The notes: generated by a model from the letters alone, not told the origin. DNA of 64,000 nucleotides from Pirellulales bacterium (GCA_019745975.1 JAIESQ010000006.1:48433-112432); one strand, 5' to 3'. Counted from the first letter of the stretch, positions 14,006 through 34,160 are shown. Made by a program: numbers and translations.

Positions 14006-14218
14006 CAACCTCCATTTCCGAAAACTTGGCCATGCGCACCATGCGATCACCGTGACACGGCCCTTGAAGATCTGTCAATCCGGCACATTACGTTCAGGAT
14101 GCCGCCGCACAACTATTCCGGCAGGTCACAGACGATATTCCGCGCACCGTCGCCATACTTGCCTGCATCCAAGTAGGGGCCGCTCAAATATCCGCGCGGC
14201 GTGCAAACGCCGACGCGT

Positions 14219-14971: not shown

Positions 14972-16051
14972 AATCGCAGTCGGTGCCAGTCCGTTCGTAG
15001 CCAGGCGTGCCAACTCGTCAGCAATGGCCTCACTGATTTGCATGCCAGTCAATTGCTCGATCCAGCCCCATTGCCCGGCGGCATTAACTTCTAGAAACAC
15101 ATAGCGATCGTCTTCGGTGACGATCATGTCGATGCAACCAAACCTAAGGCCCAAGCGGCGCATTAGTGCGCGCAGACTCCGTTCAATCTGTGGCGGAAGC
15201 GTAAATGGCTGATGGTGCGGCGTTTCGGTTGGCACGTTGACGAACCGTCTGAAATCGACGCGTGTGCTGGGCCTCTCTTGAGAGAGGATTCTGCATGCGA
15301 AAATCGCGTCGCCGACGATTGTAATCCGGACATCGCATCGCTTTTTGATGAACTGCTGGAACATCACCGGCGCGATCTGGATGTGGTCCAATAAGGGTAG
15401 CCGATCCCTTGTTAGGAGTTGGGAAAAGAGAAAAAGAGACGGACGAGTGTCGTCTTGTGGGATCGCGGGCTGCCGAACAAGTCGTGGGCCGTAGGCCCGC
15501 ACCAGCTCATCTGCGTTACTGTTGTGTAACCAGGCTCCTCCCGAGACAGTCTTGAAAAGCACTTGCTCGTCGCATTCGTCAAAGAATTCCCGAGCATGCG
15601 TTGGATCATTGGTCACCAACGTTCTGGGAACGGCGAGGTGCAAGCTGCTTGCAACCGTGAGCTGATAAAGCTTATCGGTAGCACGATCCTCAGCCGCAGG
15701 GTCGTTCATCCACGGCGAGTGAAGGGTGCTAATCAAGCCGGTCAGGAGGGCACGACACTCAGTGTCGGCAAAGTGGCTTTCTGTCTCTGTCAGTCCCGCG
15801 GCAGAAACCGGCGGTACTGGCCTTCGGTACCACACCGCCTTGATGTATCGCGTATCAACTTCTCCGACAGCAGTCTCCAAGCTGGCCCAGACTTCCTTGC
15901 CGGCGATGTTCCACTGGATTGCTGTCGCTAGGGGAAACGCCTCGGTGTTGAGGCGGAACCACCGCAGACCTCGCCGTTCCAAGTGTGGGATTAGCTGGTT
16001 GACGTTTTGCTCGGCGAGGTTCGTAACGATCAGAACGGTCGGCGGTTTCAT
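14930..16051 (-). CDS. ATP-grasp ribosomal-peptide maturase (MvdC/MvdD-like)
   Basis: N-terminus MKPPTVLIVTNLAEQNVNQLIPHLERRGLRWFRLNTE. C-terminus GCIDMIVTEDDRYVFLEVNAAGQWGWIEQLTGMQISEAIADEL. Both are typical of graspetide ligases. Confidence 0.85.
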   Translation of the reverse strand: MKPPTVLIVTNLAEQNVNQLIPHLERRGLRWFRLNTEAFPLATAIQWNIAGKEVWASLETAVGEVDTRYIKAVWYRRPVPPVSAAGLTETESHFADTECRALLTGLISTLHSPWMNDPAAEDRATDKLYQLTVASSLHLAVPRTLVTNDPTHAREFFDECDEQVLFKTVSGGAWLHNSNADELVRAYGPRLVRQPAIPQDDTRPSLFLFSQLLTRDRLPLLDHIQIAPVMFQQFIKKRCDVRITIVGDAIFACRILSQERPSTRVDFRRFVNVPTETPHHQPFTLPPQIERSLRALMRRLGLRFGCIDMIVTEDDRYVFLEVNAAGQWGWIEQLTGMQISEAIADELARLATNGLAPTAISGDGCGNCHCIVE

Positions 16052-16830: not shown

Positions 16831-17913
16831 ATGGATGTGGCATGCTCGCCGAGTGCTGATTGTTTTTTGAGCGAGCCTCTTATGACATCTTTTTCAAACG
16901 AACCCGTACCTCACGCTTCATGGAGCGAAGCACGCGAGAATGCTGCTCCTACGCAACGAACCTTGCGCCTAACAACGCTTATTGAAGGGTTGAAGAATCC
17001 TGACGTGTTGGCGTGCCTTCAATCGACGAGAGCACTTGTAGACATGGGCGAGAATGCAGTAGCGGCTCTGCTCGGCGTACTCACGGAGCCAAATCCGCTG
17101 GTGCGCTTTGTAGCGGCGTCCGCTATTGCAGAGATCGGGGCCGACAAAGCGCCCTTTCTTGCTGAAGCACTTAAAGTCCTAAACAGGGATGTGCGCCTAG
17201 AGACGGCATGGGGTCTTGGACTGACGGGGGCTATTGGTGCCGATGTAGTGCTTACTCTCGCTGATGCACTTAAAGACAAAAGCGTGAGTGTGCGCCTTCT
17301 GGCAGTGTGGGCACTTGGACAGAGAGGAGTGGATGCACGTCTTGCTGTTCCCGCTTTGGCCCAAGCACTCAAAGATTCTGACGAGGACGTGCGATATGAG
17401 GCAGCGGCGGCTCTTGCAGAGATCGGAGCAGATGCGCGGGATGCAGTACCGGCCCTGGTTGAAGCCTTCAAAGATTTAAGTAAGGAAGTGCGCTCCCATG
17501 TTGTGTGGGCTCTAAGGAACATCGGGCCTGATGCAGTCTCGACACTTGCCGAAGCTCTCAAGGATCCAAACGAGGAAGTGCGCCGTCACGCAGCATGGGT
17601 TCTTGTAAACATTGGGGGAGATGCTGTGCCGGCTGTTCTTGACGCGCTCAAACACCCGAGCCAACTTCTGCGCTTCCAGGCTGTGTGGGCTCTAAAAAAC
17701 ATCGGACCGGATGCCGTGCCCACACTTGCCGGAGCCCTCAAGGATGCAAGCGCGGAAGTGCGCTTCCTAGCCGCATCGGCGCTCGGAGAGATCGGCTCGG
17801 AAGCGTGGAATGCAGTACCGGCTTTGGTGGAAGCCCTTAAAGACCCCAACAATGAGGTGCGCTCCCAGGCGGCGTGGGCACTTGGAAGGATTGACCCGCG
17901 TGTGCTTATTTGA
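16831..17913 (+). CDS. HEAT-repeat (PBS-lyase type) protein, about 9 repeats
   Basis: Repeating ~31-aa unit D..VR..AAWALG.IG.DAVPAL.EALKD. Start is ambiguous (ATG 16831 or 16882). Confidence 0.85.
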   Translation: MDVACSPSADCFLSEPLMTSFSNEPVPHASWSEARENAAPTQRTLRLTTLIEGLKNPDVLACLQSTRALVDMGENAVAALLGVLTEPNPLVRFVAASAIAEIGADKAPFLAEALKVLNRDVRLETAWGLGLTGAIGADVVLTLADALKDKSVSVRLLAVWALGQRGVDARLAVPALAQALKDSDEDVRYEAAAALAEIGADARDAVPALVEAFKDLSKEVRSHVVWALRNIGPDAVSTLAEALKDPNEEVRRHAAWVLVNIGGDAVPAVLDALKHPSQLLRFQAVWALKNIGPDAVPTLAGALKDASAEVRFLAASALGEIGSEAWNAVPALVEALKDPNNEVRSQAAWALGRIDPRVLI

Positions 17914-18389: not shown

Positions 18390-19028
18390 ATGCAGCCTTT
18401 CTCCGTGCATCGTTCCAACCCGAACCGCAGCGCTGAGATGCACAAGACTTTGCTCTTCGTTCAGCGTCGGCTGTGCCGCACCATGAAGAATCAGAAGGTC
18501 GTGGGCCGCCGCGACTGGAACGGCCGGAAAGTCTCGCAGGCGGACTTCGATGCCGGCGACCGCAGCGCACACGTCTGTCCGTTCGTGCAGGATGCGCTAG
18601 ATCGCGACTTCCTTTGGCTGGAGGAGTCAAACAAGAGCACGCAAAGCGACGTGGAAGCTCTCCTGCAAAACCAGGTCGATCTCTTTATTCATACTCCCCC
18701 AGTCCACGACCCCGTGGCAACGCAACTACCTGCGAAAACGCCGGACCTCTGGAAGGCGTTCATCACCATTTTCCCTTTCCTGCCGCTGGACAGCAATCTC
18801 ATCCGGTCAATTCATCTGACGCTCAAGCCGCAGTTCGTCGCCAAGGGCTTGATGATCGGGGAGTTCTTTCCCGGTTTTACGGGTCAGAAAGGCATCCATA
18901 ACGACGTTGACTTTTTCCCGGGCATTGCCCCCTACCCCCTGTTCGCGATCAGATACATGGTCGAGTCGGACCGGCTCTTCAATCGCGACCCCCTGTACGA
19001 CGCCCACTATCGCCGCTATTTCCCCTAG
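18390..19028 (+). CDS. Hypothetical protein
   Basis: 212-aa ORF with protein-like composition. Start uncertain (ATGs at 18390, 18435, 18483). No family recognised. Confidence 0.5.
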   Translation: MQPFSVHRSNPNRSAEMHKTLLFVQRRLCRTMKNQKVVGRRDWNGRKVSQADFDAGDRSAHVCPFVQDALDRDFLWLEESNKSTQSDVEALLQNQVDLFIHTPPVHDPVATQLPAKTPDLWKAFITIFPFLPLDSNLIRSIHLTLKPQFVAKGLMIGEFFPGFTGQKGIHNDVDFFPGIAPYPLFAIRYMVESDRLFNRDPLYDAHYRRYFP

Positions 19029-21201: not shown

Positions 21202-21465
21202 TCAGAACTGTTCGTTCCGATCGTTGCCGTTCCCGTTCCCGTCCTGAACGTGCTGGAAGATCCACGTGTGAGCTTGGTCGGCGACCTTCGCCACGAGGGC
21301 TAAGTCGTCGCGACCGAAGCTCTGGGAAGTCTTCCAGTCGTCGCCATCCTTGTAGAGCCGCTGAAGGGTGACGTTGTGCCTAGTGCGTCCGTCGACTTCG
21401 TTGGCCCAGATGGCGGCTTTCACGTGCCCGAAACGGACTTCATGGACTGGTCGATTCGCTGACAT
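21202..21465 (-). CDS. Small conserved protein, paralog 2 of 3 (PC4/YdbC-like suspected)
   Basis: VKAAIWANEVDGRTRHNVTLQRLYKDGDDWKTSQSFGRDDLALVAKVADQAHTWI aligns with paralog 3 (VSAAIWANKTKQGDTRHCVTFSRVYY...STSFGRSDLVSLVKLAQDAHAYL). Confidence 0.65.
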   Translation of the reverse strand: MSANRPVHEVRFGHVKAAIWANEVDGRTRHNVTLQRLYKDGDDWKTSQSFGRDDLALVAKVADQAHTWIFQHVQDGNGNGNDRNEQF

Positions 21466-21492
21466 GATAGAACCTCACTTGAACAAAGAGCT

Positions 21493-21787: not shown

Positions 21788-22879
21788 TTATGCCGCGACT
21801 GCTGCTAGCGCCAAGAGCTTTGACGCTTTCTCGTCCGCGTCCGTGCGGTCGCCGGCGTTGGAAGTCTCACGTGCAAGCCGCGTCAGGGCGTCCACCAGCG
21901 CGAAGATGGTGAACCTCCCCTGCTGCGCGGCTATCTCCAAAGCCTGCTTTGCAACGCTTCGAGCGATGCCGTTCTTCGCCAGGACCTTCATCACTTCCTC
22001 AGCGTCGTCGCCGAGCTTTGTCTCCATCGCCTTTTGGATCACCGTCGCAAAGCCATCTCTTCGCTTGTCGCGTTCGACGACTAGGCTCTCGATGATCCGA
22101 CGGATCTCGCGGAGGGACTCGTGGACGTTCGCCGTATGCTTTCGAGTGAACTCGAAGACATCCACGGCGTCCCAGACGATATGGTTCTGGCACACGGCCT
22201 GGAACCAAAAGGTCTGGATACCCAGCGAGCGCCGTCCCACTTCCGAGTTCCAGATGAAGAACCCGGGGGCGAACGCCTCGCCGTCGATCTCAGTCCAGCC
22301 GGCCGGGTCGATGAGAAAACAGAACAGGTCCTGTTCTCCCGAATACAGCCCGGTCGCTCCATTGAACCCCCTCTGCGGGGGCTGGAAGTCGACGGCAAAC
22401 TCCTGGAGCATGGCGATGAGGTCCGCGTCAAAGAGCCGCGTGTAGCTTGTCCCGTGGATCGAACGGATGTTCTCCCCTTCGGTAAAAAGCTGGAGCGGCT
22501 TAGTGCCTCGCGGAAGCGTCTCCGCGAAGACTTGCGACGCGGTCTCTGGAGAGAGTCGGTTGACCGTCTCCTTCCCTACCCCGGCCAGTTTGCAGAGCTG
22601 GCTGAAGCTCCAGTCGTTCATCAGGAAGGCGCCGTCGTTCCCTGCTGATAGCAGGAGGCCATTTCCGTCTACCGGATCGATGGCGAGCTGCGCCGGCAGC
22701 TGCCAACGGTCCTGGGAGTGCTCCTGTTTCGCCCTACAGTGGACAGACAACGCAGCCAACGACTCGAACCTCTCGTCGTCGGTCCTGCGGAACAGTTCAC
22801 TGTGGGCACGTGTCAGGTTCTGCACGATCTTTGTCCTTTCTGTTTGGAACCCATGTTTGAAACCGACCATCGGTCTCAT
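21788..22879 (-). CDS. DUF932-like protein (plasmid/ICE/phage associated)
   Basis: Core FFIWNSEVGRRSLGIQTFWFQAVCQNHIVW matches the NS.dGs.s...vC.N signature of DUF932. GAGG upstream of the ATG. Confidence 0.8.
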   Translation of the reverse strand: MRPMVGFKHGFQTERTKIVQNLTRAHSELFRRTDDERFESLAALSVHCRAKQEHSQDRWQLPAQLAIDPVDGNGLLLSAGNDGAFLMNDWSFSQLCKLAGVGKETVNRLSPETASQVFAETLPRGTKPLQLFTEGENIRSIHGTSYTRLFDADLIAMLQEFAVDFQPPQRGFNGATGLYSGEQDLFCFLIDPAGWTEIDGEAFAPGFFIWNSEVGRRSLGIQTFWFQAVCQNHIVWDAVDVFEFTRKHTANVHESLREIRRIIESLVVERDKRRDGFATVIQKAMETKLGDDAEEVMKVLAKNGIARSVAKQALEIAAQQGRFTIFALVDALTRLARETSNAGDRTDADEKASKLLALAAVAA

Positions 22880-23084
22880 GAAAACCTCATGGATTCAACC
22901 TTTTGCACCACCGACCTCTCGTCCACAAAAGCCTTGCTGTTGCCGACGAGTGGCCGGGTTGCCTACCTCTACCCAGATTGGCCGTTCAAAGAACGAGCAT
23001 TTACCAAGGATATAAGGGTTTCCCTTACAGACGTGACATGTGTGGAATGCGCATTCCATCGCGGCACGCAGTAACGAAGAGGGA

Positions 23085-23275
23085 CTTTCGCCTGCCTTCG
23101 TCGGCCTGTCATCGTCGGGGCTCACCCAGTGAGGCCGTCCGGCCCTTGGCCCCGACGAGGACGGGACAGAGAAGGCAGAGTCGTGCGAGAGTGCTCTCCG
23201 CACGTTAACGGTGGGTCCGAGAGAGCCTGCCTTTGTTGGTCCGATTCCGAGGGGCTCGTCCGCCGGCTGCCTATT
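23085..23275 (+). repeat. Structured non-coding element, family 1, copy A
   Basis: Roughly 75 percent identical, by eye, to 32545-32740. About 90-nt imperfect hairpin (GCCTTCGTCGGCCTGTCATCGTCGGGG ... CCCCGACGAGGACGGGACAGAGAAGGC), then conserved CCTGCCTTTGTTGGTCCGATTCCGAGGGGCTCGTCCG. Confidence 0.5.
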
Positions 23276-23382
23276 GGGACGGCGACTAAGGTGTGCTGGC
23301 CGAGTGCCAGTCGACCGGTGGGTTCACACTGGCCTCTAGTCCAGCGTTCAGAAGAGCTCGTAGGCCTCTTGAGCTAACTCCG

Positions 23383-23550
23383 CTAGGTTACGAGTTCTTC
23401 GCGGCGGATCGTCATGGCGAACCAGCTCTCTCGGTCTCTGTGAGCGATGGTCACGCACTGTTCAGTCGTCCCGTCTGGGTTCGTGACGACCCAACCGTTG
23501 ACGACGAGGTCGCCCTTAATTCGCTTGAAGACTATTTCTTGATTGACCAT
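23383..23550 (-). CDS. Unlisted micro-ORF, 55 aa
   Basis: Hand translation: AAGGAGGG, spacer ACAAC, then ATG. MVNQEIVFKRIKGDLVVNGWVVTNPDGTTEQCVTIAHRDRESWFAMTIRREELVT. Its RBS context is nearly identical to that of gene 24665..25030. Confidence 0.5.
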   Translation of the reverse strand: MVNQEIVFKRIKGDLVVNGWVVTNPDGTTEQCVTIAHRDRESWFAMTIRREELVT

Positions 23551-23571
23551 GTTGTCCCTCCTTGATCGGTA

Positions 23572-23715
23572 GTGGCCGGTTCAGCCACGAGTAAGTTAGT
23601 CGTGCGACCGGACCACGTAGCGTCGGGGGCAAGTCAAGGAGGAACGTACCGAAGGGCGGCAATTCCTTGACTGGTCAGCCTCGATGCGCAGTGAGGAAAC
23701 GGAAGACCTTATGCA
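23572..23715 (-). promoter_or_regulatory. Conserved ~145-nt leader element, family 2, copy 1
   Basis: Shares three blocks with 25345-25492: the GTGGCC..GGCCAC-type hairpin, CCACGAGTWARTTAGTCG, and the hairpin GTCAAGGA-(23 nt)-TCCTTGAC. Confidence 0.55.
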
Positions 23716-23847
23716 ACTCGTGCTGAACGGCGACCGGAGGGAACGACATGCGCGACACAGTCGCAGAGCGGGCATTGACGGAGGAGCAACGGTTGCGACG
23801 CTGCGATGAAGGGCCGCTGAGCAGACGGCTGGGGCCGTGTGGTTCAG

Positions 23848-24396
23848 TCACTCCGACGGGCCGGGTGTTGCGTCGACTACGTGTCCGTCACGCCGGCGCC
23901 ACACCGGCGGCTGATCCTCGCCGCGTTCCCAAACCAGATCGACACCCCATGCGGCGCCGACGCCAAACGTGAACTCGGCAAACTCTCGGAGGACCGGAGG
24001 GCTCGGGCCGAGTCGTTCGCCCCATGGCCGGCCTGGTTGGAAGACGAAGGTCTCGGAGATCTGCAACACGACCTCACCGGGCGGCCGGTAGTCAACGACA
24101 AAGCCCTCGACGACCTCCGTCAGCCTTTCCCGGCGCTGGTGCATCTGCAACGCGATCGCCAGTATCTCCTCGTCGGTTGGGACTTGGAGCGGGATCGTGG
24201 TGTTGCTCCCCCGCGAGCCTTCGGGCGGCGAAACGTACGCATAGGGGTAGCTGCCGCGACCCGTGCCGACATCTGTCCAGCCAGCGCGCACGAGCAAAGG
24301 ACGGTCAGCCAAGCCGACCTTGTAGGCGTTACGGCCATACTTCGCAGGAGCCTTGCCGTATGTGTCGATTCGGACTTGGATGCTTCGGAATCTCAT
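23848..24396 (-). CDS. Hypothetical protein
   Basis: Minus-strand ORF co-oriented with its neighbours. Start taken at MRFRSIQV, with GGGGGGAG upstream. A competing plus-strand ORF exists, so strand choice is tentative. Confidence 0.4.
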   Translation of the reverse strand: MRFRSIQVRIDTYGKAPAKYGRNAYKVGLADRPLLVRAGWTDVGTGRGSYPYAYVSPPEGSRGSNTTIPLQVPTDEEILAIALQMHQRRERLTEVVEGFVVDYRPPGEVVLQISETFVFQPGRPWGERLGPSPPVLREFAEFTFGVGAAWGVDLVWERGEDQPPVWRRRDGHVVDATPGPSE

Positions 24397-24664
24397 GTGC
24401 TCCCCCCGCGCGCCGCCTCCGGCAGTCTTGTCTGGTGTTTTCGTGAGGAGCGGAGCGCCGTTGCCAGCGCGTGGCCCTGTCATCAAGGATATTGGATCGC
24501 GGTCGTCGGTTGAAGCGCAGCGTAGTTCAAGGAACAGCATAGGTTCGAGACGGCGACTGCTATGTGGTGGTCCCCGAAGGCGGAGTTCGGTCTCAGGCGA
24601 GGCGGTGGACCGCGTAGCGCCCGGCGGGGTATCGGTTCGATGCTACGCGCGGGGGCGGGCTGAC

Positions 24665-25030
24665 TCAGTCCTCGTCGGGGAGCATGACGGTGATGACCGG
24701 CTCCAGGTCATCGCCCGCACCGCAGACCGCCTTGAGCGTTACGAGCTCGTCGAGACGGTTGTGATTGCGGACAGAGAGCCCGAAGAAGAGCGTATCGACA
24801 TCGAGGTGGCGGCGGATGGCACACGAGAGCATCCACAGGATGTCCCAGAGCCTGCCCGCTTCGTCCTGAGCTTGGACGCCTTCGGGTACTTCAATGTACT
24901 TGGTCCAGACGGCTCGCGTCAGAGCTACCGGATAGCGGAAGCCAGCCTCTCGGGCGGTCCCTGTCACGTCGATGAGCACTCCGTCTTCGATGGCGTGCTG
25001 TCTGCTGTAAGAGCTGATGATGTCGTTCAT
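24665..25030 (-). CDS. Conserved hypothetical protein (MGE-type)
   Basis: AAGGAGG 6 nt upstream. The N-terminus MNDIISSYSRQHAIEDGVLIDVT resembles a family I recall from plasmid/ICE contexts. Unverified. Confidence 0.65.
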   Translation of the reverse strand: MNDIISSYSRQHAIEDGVLIDVTGTAREAGFRYPVALTRAVWTKYIEVPEGVQAQDEAGRLWDILWMLSCAIRRHLDVDTLFFGLSVRNHNRLDELVTLKAVCGAGDDLEPVITVMLPDED

Positions 25031-25084
25031 GGTTGTCCTCCTTGATAAAGGGCCGACCGGCTGAGGCGCCGGTCGGCCGCGTGG

Positions 25085-25324
25085 TTATTCCGCCCGTTGT
25101 TCCTCGGTCCGGATCAAGTACGCATGTGCGTCTTGTGCCAGTTTGACCAACGACACCAGGTCGCTGCGACCGAAGCTGGTCGAGTCTCTAGGCTGGTCTG
25201 CGGTGTAGTACACCCGCGAGAAGGTCACGCAGTGGCGGGTATCCCCTTGTTTCGTCTTGTTGGCCCAGATCGCGGCACTGACGCCTTGCTCCTTGAGCTT
25301 GTGGATTGGCTTATTCGATCCCAT
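25085..25324 (-). CDS. Small conserved protein, paralog 3 of 3 (PC4/YdbC-like suspected)
   Basis: GGAG 7 nt upstream of ATG 25324 (MGSNKPIHKL...). Aligns with paralog 2. Confidence 0.65.
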   Translation of the reverse strand: MGSNKPIHKLKEQGVSAAIWANKTKQGDTRHCVTFSRVYYTADQPRDSTSFGRSDLVSLVKLAQDAHAYLIRTEEQRAE

Positions 25325-25344
25325 GTGGTTTCTCCATTTCAATG

Positions 25345-25492
25345 GTGGCCTTAGGCGGCCACGAGTTAATTAGTCGAGAGGCCACAACGCGGAGCAACCG
25401 AGGTACGTCAAGGAGGAACGCACCGCCAGGGCGGCAATTCCTTGACGCTCCGCCTCGGGGCGCAGCGAGAGGGAACGAGATACTAATGCGAG
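25345..25492 (-). promoter_or_regulatory. Conserved ~145-nt leader element, family 2, copy 2
   Basis: GTGGCCTTAGGCGGCCAC hairpin, CCACGAGTTAATTAGTCG, GTCAAGGAGGAACGCACCGCCAGGGCGGCAATTCCTTGAC, then CCTCGGGGCGCAGCGAGAGGGAACGAG. Confidence 0.55.
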
Positions 25493-25944
25493 GTGGCCGC
25501 GAGGCAGCCAGTTGGAGGAACCTCACGAATAGAGCATCCGGAGACGGGAGCAGGTTAGACAAGGAGTCGCGAGTGGGGCAAATCAACGGGGGACCCCTGG
25601 TACTCGGGTTCACTGAGCGACTTTGTGCAGGACCAATCGAGTGCGTCAGCGGAAGGCGCTTACGGAGTTGGGGGCGAGGTCGACGAGAGCACGGGCTCGG
25701 GATCCCGGCAACTGGCGGTGGTAGTCGGCGGGGCGCCCGGCTCAGCAGAGGGACACCCCCATGATGTGTGTGGCAGCACCGGTCGAGATAGACCGCCCTT
25801 GTAGTTTGACGACAAACTCGCGGTCGCCAATGCGGACCTTCCTAGTTCGGTGAGCAGTGGGCGTCGATAGAGCGACGGCCGGAGCTTCATTCTGGTGCGC
25901 AAATCTAGGTGCCTGGGAGAGGCGCCCACCGTCCGGCGCACGCT

Positions 25945-27501
25945 TTACCGTGGCCGGCGCAGGCAGCAGCGCTTGAACTTCTTGCCGCTGCCGCACGGGC
26001 AAGGCTCGTTGCGACCGACTTTAACGCGGGAGGCGCTCTGATGATGGCTGGCTAGCTCAGTCGCGATGCGGGTGGGAGGGAGGAGCGGACGGTCGGTGAA
26101 GCGGTGTACCGGGCCTTCACCGGAGACTTCCAGCTCCTTCTGGATGTCGGCGGCCGAAGACTCCATTTCGGGCGTCCATCGATCGCCTTCTAGGATGACG
26201 ACGTCGAAGGTGCGGTACGGTTCTTCGCCAGCTTCGGACGCAATGCCCAGCACGCGTCGATACCGTCGGTGTTTGCTGGCGACAAGGAAACAGTAGTCGC
26301 GCAGGTATTGTTGCCGAGCCTGACGGTACTCAGTGACGGACGGGAAGGCATTGGGGACGAACACGAAGACGTAGAGGGTGTCGAGGAGCGATGGTGACGC
26401 GACGACCCTGTAGTCGACCCTATCTTTCGTGCCATGCGTCCAGCGTTCGTACATCTTCGCAGCGAGGAAGGCGCGGGCCCAGCGCGGTTCTTTCGCCATG
26501 CAACGGAAGATCTGTTCGTTCGCGGTCACGGTCTCGGGGCTGCCCTGGACGAGTGTGCCGGCGAAAGCATGCGTGGCGAACTCTTGGATGATGTGGTCCC
26601 AGATATAGCTTGGCTGGAGAGTTCGTCGCGATTCGCGGTACCAGTCGGTCTCCGTGACCAGGTCCCAGGGACCATCGCCGACGTGCACGAGAGCGCCGTC
26701 CTTCGCCTCGCTCAACAGGGTGCGCCAGTCGCCGGTGTGGACGTAGCGGCTCAGGAACAAGCCGAGGAGGTTCTCTTCACCGGCGACGTGTCCGATCTTG
26801 TTCGATTGGAATAGTGCCTCCTTGAACTCAAGGTAGGACACGAGGTCGGTGACTGTGTCGAGTTCTTTCAGGATCAGCGGGAGGGTGAAGTCATCGAGGA
26901 CATGGAAATACCGTGCGTCGGCGCCGACAGAACCGACTGCGAAAGGCTGGACATCGAAGGCCTGTAGGTCGTAGTGGGCTCTGCCGACGATCGCGGGCGA
27001 GAGCGAGAGGCTGCCGCTGCCGCCTCGATGCTGACGGCAGCAATCCTGTGCACCTAGGGCGACGACGATCCGATGGAAACGGCACGTGGCGATATCAGGC
27101 AACGAGACCGGCAAGGGCTCAGTGCACTTATTGTCTAAGTAGACTCGGTCGGGGTGCTGGTTGAGCCAGCGTTCTGCTCCGATCAGTTGTCTGGCAGACT
27201 CGCTGACCGTCTTTCGGAACCAGCGGGACCAGTCGAGTTTCACGTTGCCGGTGTCAGGGAAGGCGCAGCTCTTGTCGGAGAAGAGGAGGATGTGGTTGTC
27301 GCAGACGACGGTCAGGTCACAGAGCTCCTTGGGTCCGCCCTGGTCGCGGAACGTGTTCGCATAGCTCCAGAAACCCAAGAACGTCTGCTCGCAGAGTCTC
27401 GCCACCAGTCGCTCGCTCGGAGTGCTCCCTTCGGATTTGGTTGGGGCCATCATCCATGTCCGTGGCGGGTGGCGGCGGGGCAGAGCTTCGAACGGGTTCA
27501 C
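25945..27501 (-). CDS. Protein with N-terminal PD-(D/E)xK/NERD-like core and C-terminal SEC-C zinc motif
   Basis: The C-terminus ends in NEPCPCGSGKKFKRCC. The N-terminus has SERLVARLCE...ELCDLTVVCDNHILLFSDKS. GTG start at 27501; the alternative is MMAPT at 27453. Confidence 0.8.
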   Translation of the reverse strand: MNPFEALPRRHPPRTWMMAPTKSEGSTPSERLVARLCEQTFLGFWSYANTFRDQGGPKELCDLTVVCDNHILLFSDKSCAFPDTGNVKLDWSRWFRKTVSESARQLIGAERWLNQHPDRVYLDNKCTEPLPVSLPDIATCRFHRIVVALGAQDCCRQHRGGSGSLSLSPAIVGRAHYDLQAFDVQPFAVGSVGADARYFHVLDDFTLPLILKELDTVTDLVSYLEFKEALFQSNKIGHVAGEENLLGLFLSRYVHTGDWRTLLSEAKDGALVHVGDGPWDLVTETDWYRESRRTLQPSYIWDHIIQEFATHAFAGTLVQGSPETVTANEQIFRCMAKEPRWARAFLAAKMYERWTHGTKDRVDYRVVASPSLLDTLYVFVFVPNAFPSVTEYRQARQQYLRDYCFLVASKHRRYRRVLGIASEAGEEPYRTFDVVILEGDRWTPEMESSAADIQKELEVSGEGPVHRFTDRPLLPPTRIATELASHHQSASRVKVGRNEPCPCGSGKKFKRCCLRRPR

Positions 27502-27523
27502 TCCGGCAAGAGTGTCCTGAGGG

Positions 27524-27889
27524 CTACTCTCCGTGCGGCAAGTCGCGGATCCAGTTGCTCAGTACTTTGGCCGCGGCACGGGCGACGGTGACCTCGAACT
27601 GCTCGTGCTTCTCCGCTGCCGCGGCGCGGTACTTCTCGGCGTCCCTGATGTACATCAACTCGATCACGTTGAGGACGTAGAACTCGAGCTTGCCGTCGTC
27701 TTCCTCAGGTCGATCGAACACCAAGGTCTGGGAGTTGACTAGGTCGCGGCATATCTGGATCGCCGCGAACTGTTCAAGCGTAAGTGCGAGCGACGTGGAC
27801 CTCTCGATCGCTTCGGGTTTCTTCTCGACATACATGGACTGCAAGTTGCTTGCAATCCAGCTGGCGGCTTCTTGTTCGTTGTACTGCAT
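27524..27889 (-). CDS. Small acidic helical protein, 121 aa
   Basis: In-frame ATG (MQYNEQEAASWI...) within ORF 27524..28087. Sits between the two nuclease-like genes, 22 nt upstream of the SEC-C gene. Confidence 0.6.
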   Translation of the reverse strand: MQYNEQEAASWIASNLQSMYVEKKPEAIERSTSLALTLEQFAAIQICRDLVNSQTLVFDRPEEDDGKLEFYVLNVIELMYIRDAEKYRAAAAEKHEQFEVTVARAAAKVLSNWIRDLPHGE

Positions 27890-27995
27890 GGGGTTCCGCG
27901 CTGTGCTCCGCGACCTGTGCCTAAGGACGAATGTGGCGTTGGGCTGTTGGATGCAGGCGAGTCGCATGGGCGGGCGTCGTCGTCGTGTCCCTAAC

Positions 27996-28018
27996 AGTTG
28001 TCGTGGGCGGGGACAGGT
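27996..28018. promoter_or_regulatory. 23-nt conserved operator-like motif, site 1
   Basis: AGTTGTCGTGGGCGGGGACAGGT matches 29872-29894 at 21/23. Imperfect inverted half-sites AGTTGTC / GACAGGT. Confidence 0.5.
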
Positions 28019-28067
28019 AAATTCAGAAGAGCCTCGACTGGGGCCGTCGATTGACCCGCGGCTTTGC

Positions 28068-29702
28068 TCAGGCCGTAGGAACAACACCCACTGCGAACGG
28101 CCAACGCTGCGCGTCCTTGAAGCCGTCCATGAGCTGGGTAAGGGAGACGCACGGGTAATCGGGGATGAAATAGCTGGCGTACGTCGGGTGCAGTGTCACC
28201 AGCGCGCCCGCCAAGTGGGTCGGCGCCACTCGGGGGCACCCGGGCAGCAACGAGGACAGACCTGTGCAGACGGCCGGGAGGTTCGCCCGCACCCAGGTGA
28301 GCTTCCGTCGCAGCTGCTCGGCGTAAGGCTTGCTGCCGGTGACGAAGCTGCTTATGTCGTCCCGGAAATAGCTCGGCTCGGAGGCACCATCGACAAATTT
28401 GTCTTCTAGCAAGACCAGCAGCTGGTGCTCTGGCAGATAGCCGAGGTAGTCGATCTCTCCAACGGCCGGCGGGGTTTGGATGCGGTCAACCCCTAAGCCG
28501 ATCCCGTCTTTCAGTGACGGCTTCCCAACGAAACCAAGCACCGCCATGTTGCTGTCTACCTGGTCTTCGAACCATTTGCCCACTTTTCTCTGGAGAGCGG
28601 CGAGAGCTGTGTCGATTGGGCCAGCCTTCCACTCTGGAGGACAGCGCTGGAAGAGTGTGCCCTTCATTAGCTCGAACAGGCATTCGCGGGCCATCGTGCG
28701 CGACCACACGAGGTGTGGCCCGGTCTCGTGCGGCATCTCGAAGAACGCGCGGCGGAGGGCGCGGTATTCCTGCTTCGGCTTGAAGATCGTTCGGTTCTCT
28801 TGCTCCATTTTCAGCTTCGGGAGCGAGAAGCCGTCGAGAAGCTGCTCGATCGCATCCGCGTGCCAGCCCGTCGCTTGTCGGATCTGCTCGATGATGAGCG
28901 CACGCCGGACGAACGGGACATCGAAGCTGTCGGGGTCTGGGACGACCGCCCCATCGACCACCTGCATCAACGCCTGGATCCCGTCCTTGTATCCGAAGCC
29001 GAATGCAGCGCGAAAGCCCTCATCGAGCTCCGCGGCCTGGTAGTTCAAGTCGTAGCGGAGGGGCAGGCCTGCCAGATACTCTTTCTGTCGGGCAGTGTCG
29101 CGGCCAATCCGAGATGGGAAGTCGCTGTATCGCTCGAAGTGCTGGACCTTCAACTCAAGGTAGTCCAACGTTCCTTCGGGATGGATCGTGAGTACCGTGT
29201 CGTCGGGATGGACACCATGCGTCTGGTCGCTCAAGTGGTAGAGCTGGACGAGCATCTCGCTGCATATGACGATCGTGTCCAGGTTAAGAGGCATTGCCGC
29301 TCTCTCGAGCGCCGGTGCTTCGGGCGGTGCGAGCATCGCCACGACTTCCGCCAAGTGTTTCAGGGCGCGGCGAATGAGCGGTCCGTGGTTCGCCCAGTAC
29401 GCCGTGTCGTCGCCCGACAGGCGACCTGATTTGTGCAGCTGGGTGACTTTCGCCGCCGCGTCATACTGGCCGAGGAGGAACTCCATTAACTGGCGTGACG
29501 CTGACTTCGGGATCTCGGCGTGCAGCAGGCTGTAGAAATGGGCGAACCGCGACTGGATGATCTCGTTGATCTTCTTGGGGTCCTTGTAGACGCCGCTTGA
29601 ATAGCCGTCGCGGAGTTGCTTCTCGGCCTCGGTCCGCGCGAGTACCTCGCTCTGAAGTCGCGGGCGATACAGGAGGACGCCGCCAACCCGTTTGACTTCC
29701 AT
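28068..29702 (-). CDS. Large protein with C-terminal PD-(D/E)xK-like nuclease core
   Basis: WFEDQVDS...GEIDYLGYLPEHQLLVLLEDKFV gives the E / D / ExK order. GAGGGAAGG upstream of the ATG. No family recognised for the N-terminal ~400 aa. Confidence 0.8.
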   Translation of the reverse strand: MEVKRVGGVLLYRPRLQSEVLARTEAEKQLRDGYSSGVYKDPKKINEIIQSRFAHFYSLLHAEIPKSASRQLMEFLLGQYDAAAKVTQLHKSGRLSGDDTAYWANHGPLIRRALKHLAEVVAMLAPPEAPALERAAMPLNLDTIVICSEMLVQLYHLSDQTHGVHPDDTVLTIHPEGTLDYLELKVQHFERYSDFPSRIGRDTARQKEYLAGLPLRYDLNYQAAELDEGFRAAFGFGYKDGIQALMQVVDGAVVPDPDSFDVPFVRRALIIEQIRQATGWHADAIEQLLDGFSLPKLKMEQENRTIFKPKQEYRALRRAFFEMPHETGPHLVWSRTMARECLFELMKGTLFQRCPPEWKAGPIDTALAALQRKVGKWFEDQVDSNMAVLGFVGKPSLKDGIGLGVDRIQTPPAVGEIDYLGYLPEHQLLVLLEDKFVDGASEPSYFRDDISSFVTGSKPYAEQLRRKLTWVRANLPAVCTGLSSLLPGCPRVAPTHLAGALVTLHPTYASYFIPDYPCVSLTQLMDGFKDAQRWPFAVGVVPTA

Positions 29703-29871
29703 GTGGCCTTCCCTCTGGTCAAAGCCCGGACTCTGGTGGCGTCGGAGCAGGTCATTGGCGGCGAGCAGGCCGTCGCTCTAGGTTTCGGCAACTCGGGGGC
29801 GTAGCAAATGCATTGCTGCGCCGCGATGGCCAGATGCAGGCTGGACGGACGGTGCCCCGCGGCACTCAATA

Positions 29872-29894
29872 AGTTGTCGCGGCCGGGGACAGGT
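29872..29894. promoter_or_regulatory. 23-nt conserved operator-like motif, site 2
   Basis: AGTTGTCGCGGCCGGGGACAGGT, about 170-190 nt upstream of the 29702 start codon. Confidence 0.5.
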
Positions 29895-30317
29895 TTTCTT
29901 TAGTGCGGGCCGTGGTCCCTGTGGCTACTTGGCGGGGATTTGGCTCGCAGACCCGTACCGAGCCCGGAGTAGGCGCTGGGGACTGGAGGCCCCAGCTCCC
30001 GGGAGAGAGATGCTGGCGATCGGTCGGATGCAGGGTGCTTGAGACCCGAAGGACCGCAAGCTACAGACGCCGGAGATCGGACGTAAAGTCCGTCGTCGAA
30101 ACGCCTAACGTGCGAGGCGACCGCCCCTAGTTTCTAGGGAGGACTACGAGAGCCGGCGTAATGCCCTGATTTGGTGTAGCAGAAATGGGCTGGAGTATAG
30201 AGCAAGAGGGCGCAGAGAGCGGTGCGGACCCTGTCGATAACTAAATAGGCAAGGGGCCTAGGGTTGGGGCGTGGTTGAGATTGGCGTGGTCTTGAGAATC
30301 GGTGGGGGCGCTCGTCG

Positions 30318-31247
30318 ATGTGGGTAAAGCGCGGGCTGCAATTCTTCTTCGTGGCTCTTCTCCTGCTTCGGCCGTTATACGCTGTCGCTCAAGGGCCATC
30401 GAGTCGGCCTACCATCTCTGGTCCACCGGTCGAGATGTTCTTCCGTGACGGGACGAGCCGGACAGTGGAGACCGAAGTCCCCGTTCCCGACTTGTTTCGG
30501 ATGGAAGCCCCGTTCGTCGAGCGGAACATCCGCTTCGACTATCTGAGCACGAACAATCTGCACGAGCCGCGCTCCGATGAATCGCAGTTCTTCACGGAGG
30601 TCTCGTATTCGTTTTCAGACCGTCTCGGCGTCATCGTGGCCAGTCCGTTGTTACTACGCGACAACTTCTTCGGCCCGGACACCGCGGGCTTCGGCGACCT
30701 GGAAGCTGGTGTGCGCTACGTCCTCTTAGGCTACAAGAACGACGATCCCTTCAAACTGGCGTTGGGGCTCAACGTGGCGGCGCCGACGGGTGACGTCGAC
30801 CGAGAGCTGGGTGCAGGGCAGACTTTCATCGAACCGGAGGTCTTGCTTTTTCAAAGAGTCGCCAGGCAGACCTTCGTCCAAGGGCAATTCAGCTTAGGTA
30901 TCCCGACGGCAGACGATGGTTCGAGTACTGAGTTCGGTTGGAACGTGGGACTAGGATACGTGTTCACTGACGTTGCAGCGTCCCAGTACTTCAAGTTTCC
31001 GACTGCCGTGTTTGAACTCAACGGGGGCACAGCGCTTGGGGGCTTCGAGGCTGGCACCACAGTGCTTGATGTGACCTCTGGACTGAGATGGACGATCGGC
31101 AGCAAGGCGTTTGGAGGCGTGGCCGTGAGTGTCCCCGTTACAGAGTCGAGGGAGTTTGAGGCTCAGTTCATCTTCAGCGTGATTTACCGGTATGGGGCTC
31201 CTGAGGAGGTAGGCAGGGATCCGACATCGTCACGAGCATACTTTTAG
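30318..31247 (+). CDS. Outer-membrane beta-barrel protein (MetA-pathway/transporter-like)
   Basis: Signal peptide ...LLRPLYAVAQG, alternating beta-strand pattern, GFGDLEAGVRY motif, C-terminal aromatic residue (..RAYF). Confidence 0.7.
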   Translation: MWVKRGLQFFFVALLLLRPLYAVAQGPSSRPTISGPPVEMFFRDGTSRTVETEVPVPDLFRMEAPFVERNIRFDYLSTNNLHEPRSDESQFFTEVSYSFSDRLGVIVASPLLLRDNFFGPDTAGFGDLEAGVRYVLLGYKNDDPFKLALGLNVAAPTGDVDRELGAGQTFIEPEVLLFQRVARQTFVQGQFSLGIPTADDGSSTEFGWNVGLGYVFTDVAASQYFKFPTAVFELNGGTALGGFEAGTTVLDVTSGLRWTIGSKAFGGVAVSVPVTESREFEAQFIFSVIYRYGAPEEVGRDPTSSRAYF

Positions 31248-31640
31248 CCAATTAGGCCTTAAGTGGCTATCGGCCGGACGGCAGGCGACCGGCATCTGCG
31301 GCTATCAAGCCTTGCAACGTCGCCAGAAACGTCATCGCGGAACCTCTTGACGATCTCCTTTCGCGATTCCGTCAGCAGAGCTGAGTCGGGACCTTCGGTT
31401 GCCTTATCTGTCTTCCTTGCGCAGAGCCAGCCCGCCGCCAGAACTGGCCGCGGCGACATATCCTCCTCCGGCGTGAATGTCGAAATGGCTTTCGAGGGAC
31501 GACGCGCTGAATTGAGGCAGTCGCTCTTCTGGCCGACTAACTGTAGAGCGTGTCGATGCCAGGGCCAGGAAGAGAGCTGCGGAGACGATGGCCGGACTGC
31601 CGAATGCGCGACGATGCGAACGAGGAGGATGCGGAACGCC

Positions 31641-32261
31641 TCAACGACGCCCGCGCCTTTCGGCTGAAGAGGTGCCACTTCCCCCGCTCGCTGACGCAGG
31701 TGAAGCGAGCTCGTTCGCGCTCGGGCAGTTTGGGTATGTCCTGGCCGCGCAGGATGAGGTACCTAGCCCATTGCGCGAGGCATCCGATATAGCGAAGAGG
31801 TAAAGGGAATAGGTGGATCCCGCGACTAGTGCCGCTAGAGTCACATCCGTGACGCTGGCACCAGCAAGGAAGAAGAACATTGCCGAACTGAAAGCTATCA
31901 GCGCGGCAGCGACGCCCACTTCCTCCCCAAAGAATCGCTTCCCGTAGCTCCAGATGACCACGAGTAGAGCGACGGCAGCCAACCAGCTTGGGAGGCGCGC
32001 TGTCCACTCATCGATTTCGAACAGACGATACGCACTGGCCGTCAGCCAAAAGTGCAGCGGTGGCTTCCCGAAGTATGGGACTATCCCTTCGGGCATCGGC
32101 AGCCGAGGCGTAAGCCAATCGTGCAAGAGTACCATCTCTTGCGCGACGCTCGCGTAACGTGTCTCTGTCGGATCGAGCAGGTCCGTGTACCCTAGGAGGA
32201 AGCCACGCAAGAGAACGGCGCCCAGGAGCAATAGAAGAGGAACACGTATGACGCTGGTCAT
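31641..32261 (-). pseudogene. Truncated ArnT/PMT-type GT-C glycosyltransferase fragment (N-terminal ~165 aa only)
   Basis: DPTETRYASVAQEMVLLHDWLTPRLP...YFGKPPLHFWL...EWTARLPSWL is the conserved N-terminal module. After about residue 165 the frame degenerates into low-complexity S/A/G/R sequence, and no continuation was found in other frames. Confidence 0.6.
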
Positions 32262-32544
32262 GTGGTACGACAGTAGCGCCTCATTAGTGAATCCACAAGG
32301 TCGAGCGCATCTAAGGCCCGGCGTAGGCCCGATGCTTCCGACGCAGGGAGACCGACCTCGGTCGTCCTAAGGCACGGACACGGGAGGCGCAGAAAACGCC
32401 GTTGGCGACTCCGAGCGCAGCTTAGAAGGCATTGGAGACAGCGGCGGCGGCGCGAAGCCGTAGATGGTCTGAGGAATTGCGTAGCTGAGCCAGTTGAGCT
32501 TTGAGGTTCGACAGTCTCGGCACGAGCGCCCTCTCCTAAGGAGT

Positions 32545-32740
32545 CTTCGCCTGCCTTCGTCCGCCTGTCATCGTCGGGGCTCGCCCGCTGAGGCCGAAGG
32601 GCCGTTGGCCCCCGACGGGGACGGGGCGGCGAAGGCGAGGTACTGTCCGTCTCCGCCTGCTGGATTTGCCGCAAACAGCGGGCGGGCTACAGGCGGACCT
32701 GCCTTTGTTGGTCCCGATTCGGAGGGGGCTCGTCCGGGGT
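32545..32740 (+). repeat. Structured non-coding element, family 1, copy B
   Basis: GCCTTCGTCCGCCTGTCATCGTCGGGG ... CCCCGACGGGGACGGGGCGGCGAAGGC hairpin, then CCTGCCTTTGTTGGTCCCGATTCGGAGGGGGCTCGTCCG. Confidence 0.5.
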
Positions 32741-32905
32741 GCTTGGATTTAGAGGGGGGATCAGGTAGAACTAGCGCTCGACAATCTGAATACCCTGATG
32801 GGAACCCGGTCAGGCAAAACAAACAGGGCGACGGCTAGTGCAACGCAAGCACCAATCCGGCGTCCTGTTATTTTTTGCGCTGATGCGCAGGAAAGGAAGT
32901 TTCAG

Positions 32906-33628
32906 ATGATTGATGCTGAATTGCAGGTCCGATTTGCGAGGGCGGTTTCGGAACTCTCCGCCGTGGCCGAAGCAGCGGGAATCAATGTCGCGGACGAGGA
33001 CACGGATGGTGAGGTTCGCCTCTGGCTCGACGGCAACGATGCGCCCCTCGATTGGGCCGGGCCAAAGTTGACATCCGATGAGTGGTTCTTTGTCACGACG
33101 CTCTATGGCCCGTGGAACCTGGGGCGTCAACGCTCGCTGATTCGAAGGTGCTTTCCCCGCTTTGTGAGGCAGGCCGGGCGAGAAATGCAAAGCGTCTCCG
33201 ACGAAATGTTTGTCGACTGGGGCTTATTGGCTTGGATGGGAAAGAGGCTTTGCCGAATGGCCGAAGTGCTTAAGAAGCTCGGCATGACGATGGAGAGGTA
33301 CGCGAACTTGCTGCGCGACTTGGAGGCAATGGCGACTCCGGAGGATCCGATGCCCGGGCTCGATCGAATCATGCACGACCATCGGGCCGGGGAAGGAAAG
33401 ACGCTGAGCGTCTTTGTGCGTGACTGCGCAAAAGGGAACTGTTTCCCGATAGACACTCGGGTCGCGAAGCAGCTTGAAGTTTTCGGGCTTCCCAGAGACG
33501 AAAGTTGGCTCGTGAGCCGTTGCCTTGGGATGGGATTGAATCCGCGTCGGATCGCACGAATCTTCTACCAGGCGGCAGACCCGTCAGAGCGTACGATTGG
33601 CCGTAAGTGCATGGCCAATCGTAATTAG
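32906..33628 (+). CDS. Hypothetical protein with HhH-GPD-like C-terminal segment
   Basis: GGAAAGGAAG upstream of ATG 32906. FPIDTRVAKQLEVFGLP resembles the vDtHv.Rv..RlGl segment of EndoIII-type glycosylases. Weak. Confidence 0.5.
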   Translation: MIDAELQVRFARAVSELSAVAEAAGINVADEDTDGEVRLWLDGNDAPLDWAGPKLTSDEWFFVTTLYGPWNLGRQRSLIRRCFPRFVRQAGREMQSVSDEMFVDWGLLAWMGKRLCRMAEVLKKLGMTMERYANLLRDLEAMATPEDPMPGLDRIMHDHRAGEGKTLSVFVRDCAKGNCFPIDTRVAKQLEVFGLPRDESWLVSRCLGMGLNPRRIARIFYQAADPSERTIGRKCMANRN

Positions 33629-34160
33629 CGACTTCGACCACGTCTTTAGGGGAGTCAAAAAAAGTTCAATAGCCGTCCTGTTGCCCCGATTTGCCTTTCT
33701 TAACGAGTCATCCTTCCCGACCGACACATCAACACGAACGCCAGTTGCCTGTTGCCCGGCCGATAGTGCCTCGGCCCAATAGGCAGGCAATTTGTTGCGG
33801 GGCGTTGGGCGCTGGCAGACCTCAATCGGCGGCTCGGCAGCACCGACGGTTAGTACGCCCCTGACCACTTTGTTCGACGTGCGCTTGCCCTGGGCTCACT
33901 TCTCGAAGGCCAGATAGAGCTGAGCGTCACCTTCACCGGTATTCGTTGACACCAGGCGATATCGACGCCGATCGGTATTTCCCGGAAGCGACCATCTTGA
34001 TTTATTCATCAACGAACACCGACAAACTTGGCGACGTTAAGCCGAGCGTCACGGACAAATGGTTGCACCTATTAGCGATAGCACTCGCGATAGGCCTCAG
34101 CTGGAAGGCCGCGTGGGCCGTCATCGCACGTCAACGCCGCGGGCCCGCGCGGCAGAATGA

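Follow-up and report, generated by a model that had tools for sequence, protein, structure and literature searches.

A strand-specific hairpin element conserved in plasmid-derived islands of Planctomycetes

Two copies of a folded element were identified in a 64,000-nt stretch of DNA from a Pirellulales bacterium (GCA_019745975.1, JAIESQ010000006.1:48433-112432; this whole stretch is called the window). They represent a previously undescribed, strongly conserved family of folded DNA/RNA elements that is absent from Rfam and PLSDB. The element consists of an imperfect hairpin of 28-30 bp (P1), a variable linker of about 8-70 nt and a second conserved sequence (block 2), with a total length of 150-215 nt. 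P1 is under selection, and the family occurs only in plasmid-derived islands of Planctomycetes. With limited confidence, we propose that the element works as a signal on single-stranded DNA while the island is single-stranded.

The two copies had been noticed by a model working from the window sequence alone (the sequence-only reading), which placed them at 23085-23275 and 32545-32740 on the plus strand. Alignment, word counts and the covariance model R1 all bore this out, and the features of the two copies are as follows.

23076-23274, plus strand: copy A, whole element (R1 160.7 bits, E 2.7e-43; alignments A1, A2 and A4)
32535-32748, plus strand: copy B, whole element (R1 130.8 bits, E 6.2e-35)
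23093-23177, plus strand: hairpin P1 of copy A, with the 5' arm CCTGCCTTCGTCGGCCTGTCATCGTCGGGGC and the 3' arm GCCCCGACGAGGACGGGACAGAGAAGGCA (fold and pair counts)
32552-32637, plus strand: hairpin P1 of copy B (fold and pair counts)
23179-23225, plus strand: linker of copy A, unconserved between copies or loci (alignments A1, A2 and A4)
23226-23263, plus strand: block 2 of copy A, CCTGCCTTTGTTGGTCCGATTCCGAGGGGCTCGTCCGC, a near-duplicate of the P1 5' arm that can pair with the lower 3' arm
32698-32736, plus strand: block 2 of copy B (alignments and word scan)

Copies A and B lie 9.5 kb apart in the same orientation and share 78% column identity in the pairwise alignment, rising to 88% over the initial 67 nt (repeat family D4). 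Conserved words of 17 and 20 nt were each found exactly twice in the 64 kb with up to 3 mismatches allowed, while two matches occurred in 0 of 100 shuffles, and R1, which was built from relatives, gave no third copy in the window. Homology to the relatives begins at about 23088 in A and 32546 in B and ends at GGGGCTCGTCCGC (23263 and 32736, respectively); the functional unit is a little wider than the span first drawn. The inner stem TCGTCGGGG/CCCCGACGA was seen in both copies, and so was the second conserved block (CCTGCCTTTGTTGGTCC..GGGGCTCGTCCG). The outer stem GCCTTCG/CGAAGGC, which had been described for both, is present in B only; copy A has GCCTTC/GAAGGC and then a G·A mismatch. Copy B had been suspected of being a relic, and its sequence does not agree with this, as all of its conserved blocks are intact and it still scores 130.8 bits.

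At least 27 full instances of the element were collected, every one from Planctomycetota genomes or metagenomes. Metagenome contigs aligned to copy A yielded further loci with both blocks and a shorter middle, and a two-block pattern scan of 185,579 species genomes gave nine loci, all in Planctomycetota metagenome-assembled genomes (MAGs) of Pirellulales and Planctomycetaceae. A metagenome scan with block 2 only returned 47 loci, of which about 15 GC-rich ones were true instances, each with the hairpin upstream, and the remainder were chance matches. R1 was built from 21 sequences and scored 111-167 bits on the forward strand of the 25 main-family instances, whose reverse strands gave 23-52 bits owing to the palindromic stem; a divergent pair (L013 and L021) reached 68-74 bits. 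Scans of viral contigs turned up nothing but chance matches, which fell in AT-rich phage genes, and blastn with copy A as query (word size 11) found no match among the 72,556 plasmids of PLSDB. The Rfam scan matched no family to the element: with Rfam 15, nothing in the window reached the gathering score, and nothing on the element appeared at E values up to 10 in 22000-34000. Each island carries one or two copies, in the same orientation and kilobases apart (2.9 kb for the pair in L067). The isolate Lacipirellula parvula PX69 carries a copy on the minus strand of AP021861 (4272782-4272966), which comes after its DUF932 gene PLANPX_3801.

The divergent subfamily (L013 1420-1569 and L021 952-1100) is located about 30 nt past the stop of an insertion sequence IS3-type (rve) transposase open reading frame (ORF), and its block 2 makes a hairpin of its own, UUUGUUGG...CCAACAAA. 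As a separate observation, the source metagenome (run X1) contains a second, diverged locus with DUF932 plus the element at a depth of 7.8; compared with window 22637-23088, its homology is lost between 22921 and 23088 and comes back exactly at the element start.

Within P1, the 5' arm (block 1, CCTGCCTTCGTCNGCCTGTCATCGTCGGGGC) is almost invariant, while the 3' arm and the apex vary; in A and B the apex forms two small hairpins. The pattern of mismatches and bulges in the stem is conserved, and all 27 sequences have GCCTTCG/(N)GAAGGC at the stem foot. The covariation analysis supported P1. In an independent MAFFT alignment of 21 sequences, 89.8% of the cells were paired and 5 pairs had changed on both sides, and no shuffle reached the observed pairing or the observed covariation score. 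When 27 sequences were aligned to the model, an alignment that is fitted to the structure, 91.4% of the cells were paired and 12 pairs showed double changes; 0 of 500 shuffles reached the observed values, and slid controls were 30-52% paired. The newer instances add compensatory changes at columns 25:107 (G-C to A-U), 33:98 (A-U) and 36:95 (C-G).

The strand on which P1 folds was examined from the wobble pairs and from fold stability. The sequence-only reading had drawn its G-T wobble asymmetry from the two copies, where it is weak (2 G·U to 1 A·C in A; 5 to 1 in B); across the family it is strong, with 78 G·U cells against 22 A·C cells. Since neutral transitions with the base make-up of the fixed arm predict about 61:39, the bias is real. 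The core stem has G·U in 13 columns and A·C in 2, and its consensus includes a tandem U·G/G·U. P1 is very stable on both strands (−56 versus −48 kcal/mol); among 24 instances, 23 had the more stable P1 on the plus strand of the element under RNA parameters, and 19 did so under DNA parameters. Selection for folding of the plus strand, as had been claimed, is thus upheld by the family-wide G·U excess, the pair counts and the fold stability.

Block 2 resembles the 5' arm of P1: over the first 22 positions the two differ mostly by C-to-T or T-to-C changes, which leave block 2 still pairable with the 3' arm. Block 2 and the lower 3' arm could be paired in 93.8% of cells over 14 pairs, and at column 104 of alignment A4 an A in the 3' arm is a mismatch within P1 (6 of 27 sequences) and would make an A-U pair with block 2 (7 A-U). 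An alternative helix of the 3' arm with block 2 is possible by complementarity; because block 2 is invariant, covariation cannot test such a switch. No consistent pairing partner was found downstream of block 2. A second hairpin formed from block 2 was considered as a general feature and rejected, as it is seen only in the L013/L021 subfamily and perhaps weakly in A. The linkers overall contain 36% C and 25% G, which is only a trend, with an approximate extraction that is too long in a few sequences. A C-rich, rut-like linker was rejected on this account, the linkers of A and B being G-rich. A terminator formed by the linker plus CCTGCC-TTTGTTGG is predicted in A and B and is unconserved elsewhere.

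The folding strand could be transcribed into a noncoding RNA that is antisense to the island genes on either side and regulates them or protects them from read-through; its stable stem would be P1, and a conformational switch would arise from competition between the 5' arm and block 2 for pairing with the 3' arm. We regard such an RNA, which ranks next after the single-strand signal, as rather unlikely. The G·U-rich helix with its conserved tandem 5'-UG/GU-3' pair speaks for it, as do the alternative helix with its rescue of the column-104 A variants and the words of the element in many RNA-labelled runs. Antisense RNAs are also common on plasmids. Against this, across 24 contexts there was neither a conserved promoter upstream nor a conserved terminator downstream, and no conserved sequence at all upstream of block 1 or downstream of block 2; the element thus has no dedicated promoter or terminator of a small RNA gene. 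The failure to match an Rfam family and the invariance of block 2, which puts the switch beyond covariation, also count against an RNA. Copy A was found in no RNA run, and the many RNA-labelled runs hold words of a consensus-like copy. The RNA contigs obtained for L050 were 151-264 nt long, with a depth of 2-7 and no strand information, and reached beyond the 5' edge of P1 by 79-225 nt; DNA is present in at least one of these runs, as it includes a contig of 127 kb. These contigs neither demonstrate nor exclude a discrete small RNA.

The plasmid antisense RNAs FinP, CopA and RNAI are likewise structured, lie on the strand opposite mobile-element genes and have G·U-rich stems, whereas they overlap a defined 5' region of their target and have their own promoter and terminator, and the element has no conserved target, promoter or terminator. 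Two further RNA classes were rejected. For a retron noncoding RNA, a reverse transcriptase is near only one copy, on the opposite strand and the wrong side. For a cis-regulatory leader of a conserved downstream gene, the ORFs beside the element are unconserved apart from the island genes, and the two same-strand downstream genes are unrelated. The suggestion that the element is the 5' leader of the ORF at 32906-33628 likewise finds no support, as the same-strand genes downstream of B and of the second copy in L067 (L067b) have no relation to each other.

The window is part of a planctomycete chromosome, with heavy-metal efflux genes at 1-12 kb and housekeeping genes (esterase, MBL, RuvX and BioB) from about 34 kb on. 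Between them lies an island in which most genes have no assignment; no tRNA was found in the window. The island begins with a Xer-like tyrosine recombinase, whose place at the far end of a co-oriented gene block marks the island as an integrative element. The features of the island are listed below.

13031-14050, minus strand: Xer-like tyrosine recombinase (Pfam and NCBIfam; 67% identity to the L063 integrase by tblastn; layout shared with L069)
21229-21468, minus strand: small protein gene (~80-90 aa), found 3' of DUF932 in nearly all related loci (tblastn)
21788-22825, minus strand: DUF932-family gene; the start at 22825 fits the relatives, and the longest ORF runs to 22879
23001-23029, minus strand: conserved palindrome with a TATAT motif, GTAAGGGAAACCCTTATATC on the gene strand, common to L009 and L061 (upstream flanks compared by eye)
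25085-25324, minus strand: paralogue of the small protein gene (tblastn)
31641-32261, minus strand: truncated PMT_2 (GT-C) fragment, left of copy B (Pfam)
32906-33628, plus strand: ORF 158 nt downstream of copy B, with coding-like codon-position GC, no family match and no conservation beside other copies

As the sequence-only reading had it, copy A lies upstream of a minus-strand DUF932-like gene, at a distance of about 250 nt. The protein scored 21.8 bits against Pfam PF06067 (cut-off 23) and has more than 2800 relatives in metagenomes at 68-91% identity, all planctomycetal where named; many relatives of 70-91% identity bear the PF06067 or DUF932 name in NCBI. It also aligns over its full length with plasmid DUF932 proteins at 27-28% identity. 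DUF932 homologues were found on 274 alphaproteobacterial plasmids, 168 of them typed as conjugative, and in one example the gene stands beside ParB, toprim and SSB genes. The palindrome in the stretch that separates copy A from DUF932 probably serves this gene as its ordinary double-strand promoter/operator.

Across loci, the element is accompanied by genes of plasmid- or ICE-like kind, namely DUF932, RepA(RPA), ParA, PIN toxin-antitoxin and HTH_17 genes, a Xer-like integrase and a gene like that of the type IV coupling protein (T4CP). Of nine DUF932 loci sampled in full, six gave an R1 match (the window, L060, L061/62, L063, L066 and L067 with two copies), and the element was absent from the other three, L064, L065 and L068. 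The DUF932 contigs of Lacipirellula parvula and one MAG contain RepA(RPA), ParA, PIN_3 and HTH_17, and L063 combines a T4CP-like gene with HNH/Mrr genes and an integrase that shares 67% identity with that of the window. In the Gemmataceae MAG contig L064 there are a TrwC relaxase, Dam and a giant SNF2 protein, and other DUF932 contigs hold Wadjet, AbiEi/AbiEii, Tpt1 and further integrases. Similar genes were met in loci that had been found via the element alone: L006 and L059 have ParA and RepA, L028 has a PIN toxin-antitoxin pair, and L050 has HTH_17 together with integrase-linked genes. RPA is reported to be a replication initiator of planctomycete plasmids, and chromosomal RPA genes are regarded as derived from integrated plasmids (10.1101/2024.01.22.576637).

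The orientation of the element is consistent. In 8 of 8 loci with both, it lies on the strand opposite to DUF932. The closest island gene that could be identified is also on the other strand, on the right side in about 14 of 16 cases and on the left side in about 12 of 15. Its position is less uniform. It stands upstream of DUF932 by about 250 nt in A, L009 and L061, and upstream of HTH_17 by 131 nt in L050. In L063 it has a T4CP-like operon on one side and the DUF932 block on the other, and is upstream of both a 146-aa gene and DUF932. In L060, L008, L066 and L067 it comes after a gene block, 8-30 nt past the stop or between convergent genes; the distance from the preceding stop is 8 nt in L067a (AbiEii), 12 in L066, 16 in L008, 26 in L059 and 29 in L006, and in L066 the stops of the two convergent genes are 12 and 9 nt away.

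We infer a single-stranded state, an enzyme and an outcome as follows. The element would be a functional module of plasmid-derived integrative islands that acts as a folded single strand, the folding strand being the template strand for the neighbouring island genes. The island would be transferred or replicated in single-stranded form, and there the element would act as single-stranded DNA: the long hairpin P1 would stay free of SSB, and P1 and the invariant words GCCTTCGTCGG and GCCTTTGTTGG would jointly attract an enzyme of the host or of the island, be it a primase, a primosome or RNA polymerase. This enzyme would initiate synthesis of the complementary strand and/or early transcription in the direction of the co-oriented genes. 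The family, the hairpin, its strand and its association with mobile-element genes are shown; these speak for this reading, as do the orientation relative to the island genes, the DUF932 homologues on plasmids and the lack of transcription signals of its own.

If so, the element would be an analogue, and no homologue, of the known single-strand initiation (ssi), Frpo and single-strand origin (sso) signals. Like the Frpo and ssi elements of F and IncI1 plasmid leading regions, it has a long imperfect hairpin that matters on one strand, the template of co-oriented mobile-element genes, and occurs in one to three copies of the same orientation, kilobases apart, beside leading-region-type genes. 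F and ColIb-P9 carry repeated Frpo/ssi copies, and the copy number and spacing of the element resemble these. The orientation rule reported for leading-region genes and Frpo is the same as that of the element, and Frpo candidates are judged by structure plus -35/-10/UP (PMC11541004). Unlike them, the element has no -35/-10/UP in its stem and no sequence similarity to them, its P1 is about 30 bp against roughly 100 bp in Frpo, a near-duplicate of the 5' arm follows downstream, its position relative to genes is variable, and its host phylum is without demonstrated conjugation. The Frpo-type geometry put forward for copy A is thus only partly supported: strand and mobile-element context fit, and the lack of -35/-10 hexamers, the lack of PLSDB similarity and the non-uniform position do not; a location 50-350 bp upstream of a leading-region ORF holds for A, L009, L061, L063 and L050 and not for L060, L066 and L067b. 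A true Frpo homologue was rejected for the same lack of a -35/-10 pair and of PLSDB similarity, and DUF932 has its own palindrome/TATAT between the element and the gene.

The sso of rolling-circle plasmids and the G4/M13 minus-strand origins are also strand- and orientation-specific, hairpin-rich sequences of 150-300 nt that recruit RNA polymerase or primase on single-stranded DNA. In these, the strand that folds codes for most genes; the element folds on the template strand instead, and it has no RSB/CS-6 motifs. Rolling-circle replication is not known for RepA(RPA) plasmids.

Several observations weigh against a single-strand signal. Neither strand of 22700-23700 and 32200-33000 contained a sigma-70-like -35/-10 site, and the best promoter-like reading of the 3' arm by eye is TTGGCC-N17-ACGAAG. 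The island in the window has no relaxase or mating-pair genes, no origin of transfer (oriT) or relaxase was identifiable in the window, and conjugation is unreported in Planctomycetes (10.1101/2024.01.22.576637). In the integrated state, L060, L066 and L067b have no co-oriented gene after the element, which is usually nearer to the preceding stop (8-120 nt) than to the next start (130-550 nt). Tandem U·G/G·U pairs, conserved here, are more usual in RNA than in DNA, and metatranscriptome assemblies contain words of the element, albeit without strand and at low depth. Nor does this reading account for block 2.

As folded single-stranded DNA, the element could instead be an attC-like recombination or module-boundary site, at which the island Xer-like recombinase captures or exchanges cargo modules; we think this improbable. 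In its favour, the folding strand is opposite to the ORFs and often lies 8-30 nt past a stop codon, and in about 14 of 16 loci the element is 8-120 nt from the stop of an opposite-strand gene, as expected for attC. The variable apex and the conserved mismatch/bulge pattern of the stem fit as well. In related loci, homology and synteny end exactly at the outer edges of the element, and same-orientation copies flank cargo that is often defence-like (JetABCD, AbiEi/AbiEii, PIN toxin-antitoxin, reverse transcriptase and ResIII helicase). In the window, L063 and L066, the element and a Xer-like recombinase are about 6.5-9 kb apart, and L069 has the same DUF932-to-integrase layout on a contig that ends before the element.

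Other points count against it. The RYYYAAC/GTTRRRY core sites were absent when the alignment was read, and the recombinase is no integron integrase: TIGR02249 gave 40.4, 71.8 and 32.4 bits against a cut-off of 265, the score of about 40 being that of the island recombinase, and the best matches, XerD/XerC, were also below cut-off. A locus has two copies at most, separated by kilobases and by modules of several genes; the source metagenomes showed neither a circle junction nor a deletion joining A to B, and no att-type partial third copy turned up beside the integrase or at the opposite end of the island. Within the group of A, L009 and L061, the element remains linked to the DUF932 module downstream of it and not to the upstream ORF. 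The attC sites, including the conserved Vibrio cholerae repeat (VCR) type of chromosomal integrons, are alike in having the folded strand opposite to ORFs just past their stops, a conserved stem with mismatches, a variable terminal structure and a cargo often of defence or toxin-antitoxin genes. The element differs in being longer (150-215 nt) with a block 2, in having neither R/L core sites nor IntI (its recombinase being Xer-like), and in its few, multi-gene modules. An integron attC proper was rejected, as there are no R''/R' core sites at the stem foot and no IntI. Beside this cargo it was observed that a complete Wadjet system (JetABCD, L061 2601-9336) ends 206 nt before the element and the DUF932 gene, and that the AbiEi/AbiEii pair of L067 ends 8 nt before a copy.

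The element could also be an oriT, with a relaxase-binding hairpin and a nick site in or near the repeated word, which we consider very unlikely. Its hairpin is specific to the strand expected to be transferred, it lies between the T4CP-like operon and the DUF932 block in L063, and planctomycete chromosomes contain MOBF relaxases and T4CPs (10.1101/2024.01.22.576637). Set against this are the variable distance from hairpin to block 2 (8 to about 70 nt), the two copies in one island and the copies that follow AbiEii, Tpt1 or PIN genes far from any relaxase; none of the copies has a relaxase nearby, and L064, the sole locus with a TrwC relaxase, has no element. Known oriT nick sites, by comparison, sit at a fixed short distance from the hairpin.

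There is similarly little chance that the element is a transcription insulator, a terminator or an mRNA-end stabiliser at module borders, like the repetitive extragenic palindromic (REP) or bacterial interspersed mosaic elements (BIME). The location just past stops and between convergent genes (L066) and a stem very stable on both strands would suit such a function. No U-tract follows the hairpin on either strand, however, the wobble asymmetry favours the strand antisense to the genes, a terminator would not require one arm and block 2 to be roughly 90% conserved, and the copy number is low. An intrinsic terminator was rejected, since P1 is followed by the variable and often C-rich linker on the plus strand and by an A-rich stretch on the minus strand. 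A miniature inverted-repeat transposable element (MITE) or REP-type repeat was rejected as well, because the ends are not inverted repeats and there are at most two copies per window, locus or genome scanned.

Other features of the islands were recorded. The small-protein family (~80-100 aa) after DUF932 has no Pfam match, and at least 4 paralogues occur in the Gemmataceae island L064 (6623-6871, 11128-11454, 11611-11874 and 12076-12330). In L064 a different hairpin, starting CCTGCCTCTCGGGAG, is found at 9885-9960 on the locus minus strand, 50-120 nt upstream of DUF932 and opposite to the gene strand; read on the gene strand, it encloses the perfect terminator-like GGCCTCCGGTCGAGGCCTTTTTT. The repeats of L064 include no family equivalent to the element. 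A second repeat family in the window, 75% identical between 23584-23651 and 25358-25425 (plus strand) and reaching to about 23675 and 25450, has the sequence GCCACGAGTAAGTTAGTCG...GTCAAGGAGGAACG..GGCGGCAATTCCTTGAC and a hairpin of its own. Its copies each lie immediately upstream of a small gene on the minus strand that is divergent from them (starts at about 23551 and 25324), and the family is probably a shared promoter/operator or leader. At 25033-25082 (plus strand) there was a weak Rfam match to PtaRNA1, a plasmid-transferred antisense RNA (23.5 bits versus gathering 47, E 0.48); this GC-rich hairpin directly after the 25085-25324 gene is most likely only a terminator.

Searches of the neighbouring proteins against PHROGs, PADLOC and PDB gave no functional lead. 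The gene at 25945-27501 (minus strand) encodes a 518-aa protein with a C-terminal SEC-C motif, which matches phrog_18195 over its full length (E 1.4e-54, function not assigned), and its SEC-C motif alone matches the PADLOC PDC-S12 and E1-E2/E2 models. The same island contains a HEAT-repeat gene with internal 90/99-nt DNA repeats (families D1-D3) at 16831-17913 (plus strand), an MvdD-type ATP-grasp gene at 14930-16051 and a DUF6875 gene at 18390-19028.

In conclusion, the motif is new, while its kind, a strand-specific structured element of mobile DNA, is already known. For Planctomycetes there is no described conjugation and there are very few described mobile-element signals. The element is better conserved than the surrounding proteins, and it provides a conserved handle, with a ready covariance model of more than 110 bits of separation, that marks a widespread family of plasmid-derived islands. 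It is a bold and doubtful proposal that the element is the cis-acting site of an undescribed single-stranded DNA pathway of these islands, either as an SSB-excluding initiation signal or as an attC-like folded site recombined by a Xer-like recombinase. If the former were true, the islands would move between cells as single strands in a phylum without shown conjugation; if the latter, integron-like shuffling of defence cargo would take place without IntI. A single-strand initiation or recombination site would give direct evidence on DNA movement in the phylum and a useful part for genetic tools, and an RNA would be a new class of plasmid-borne regulator. The copy in the isolate Lacipirellula parvula makes the question directly testable.

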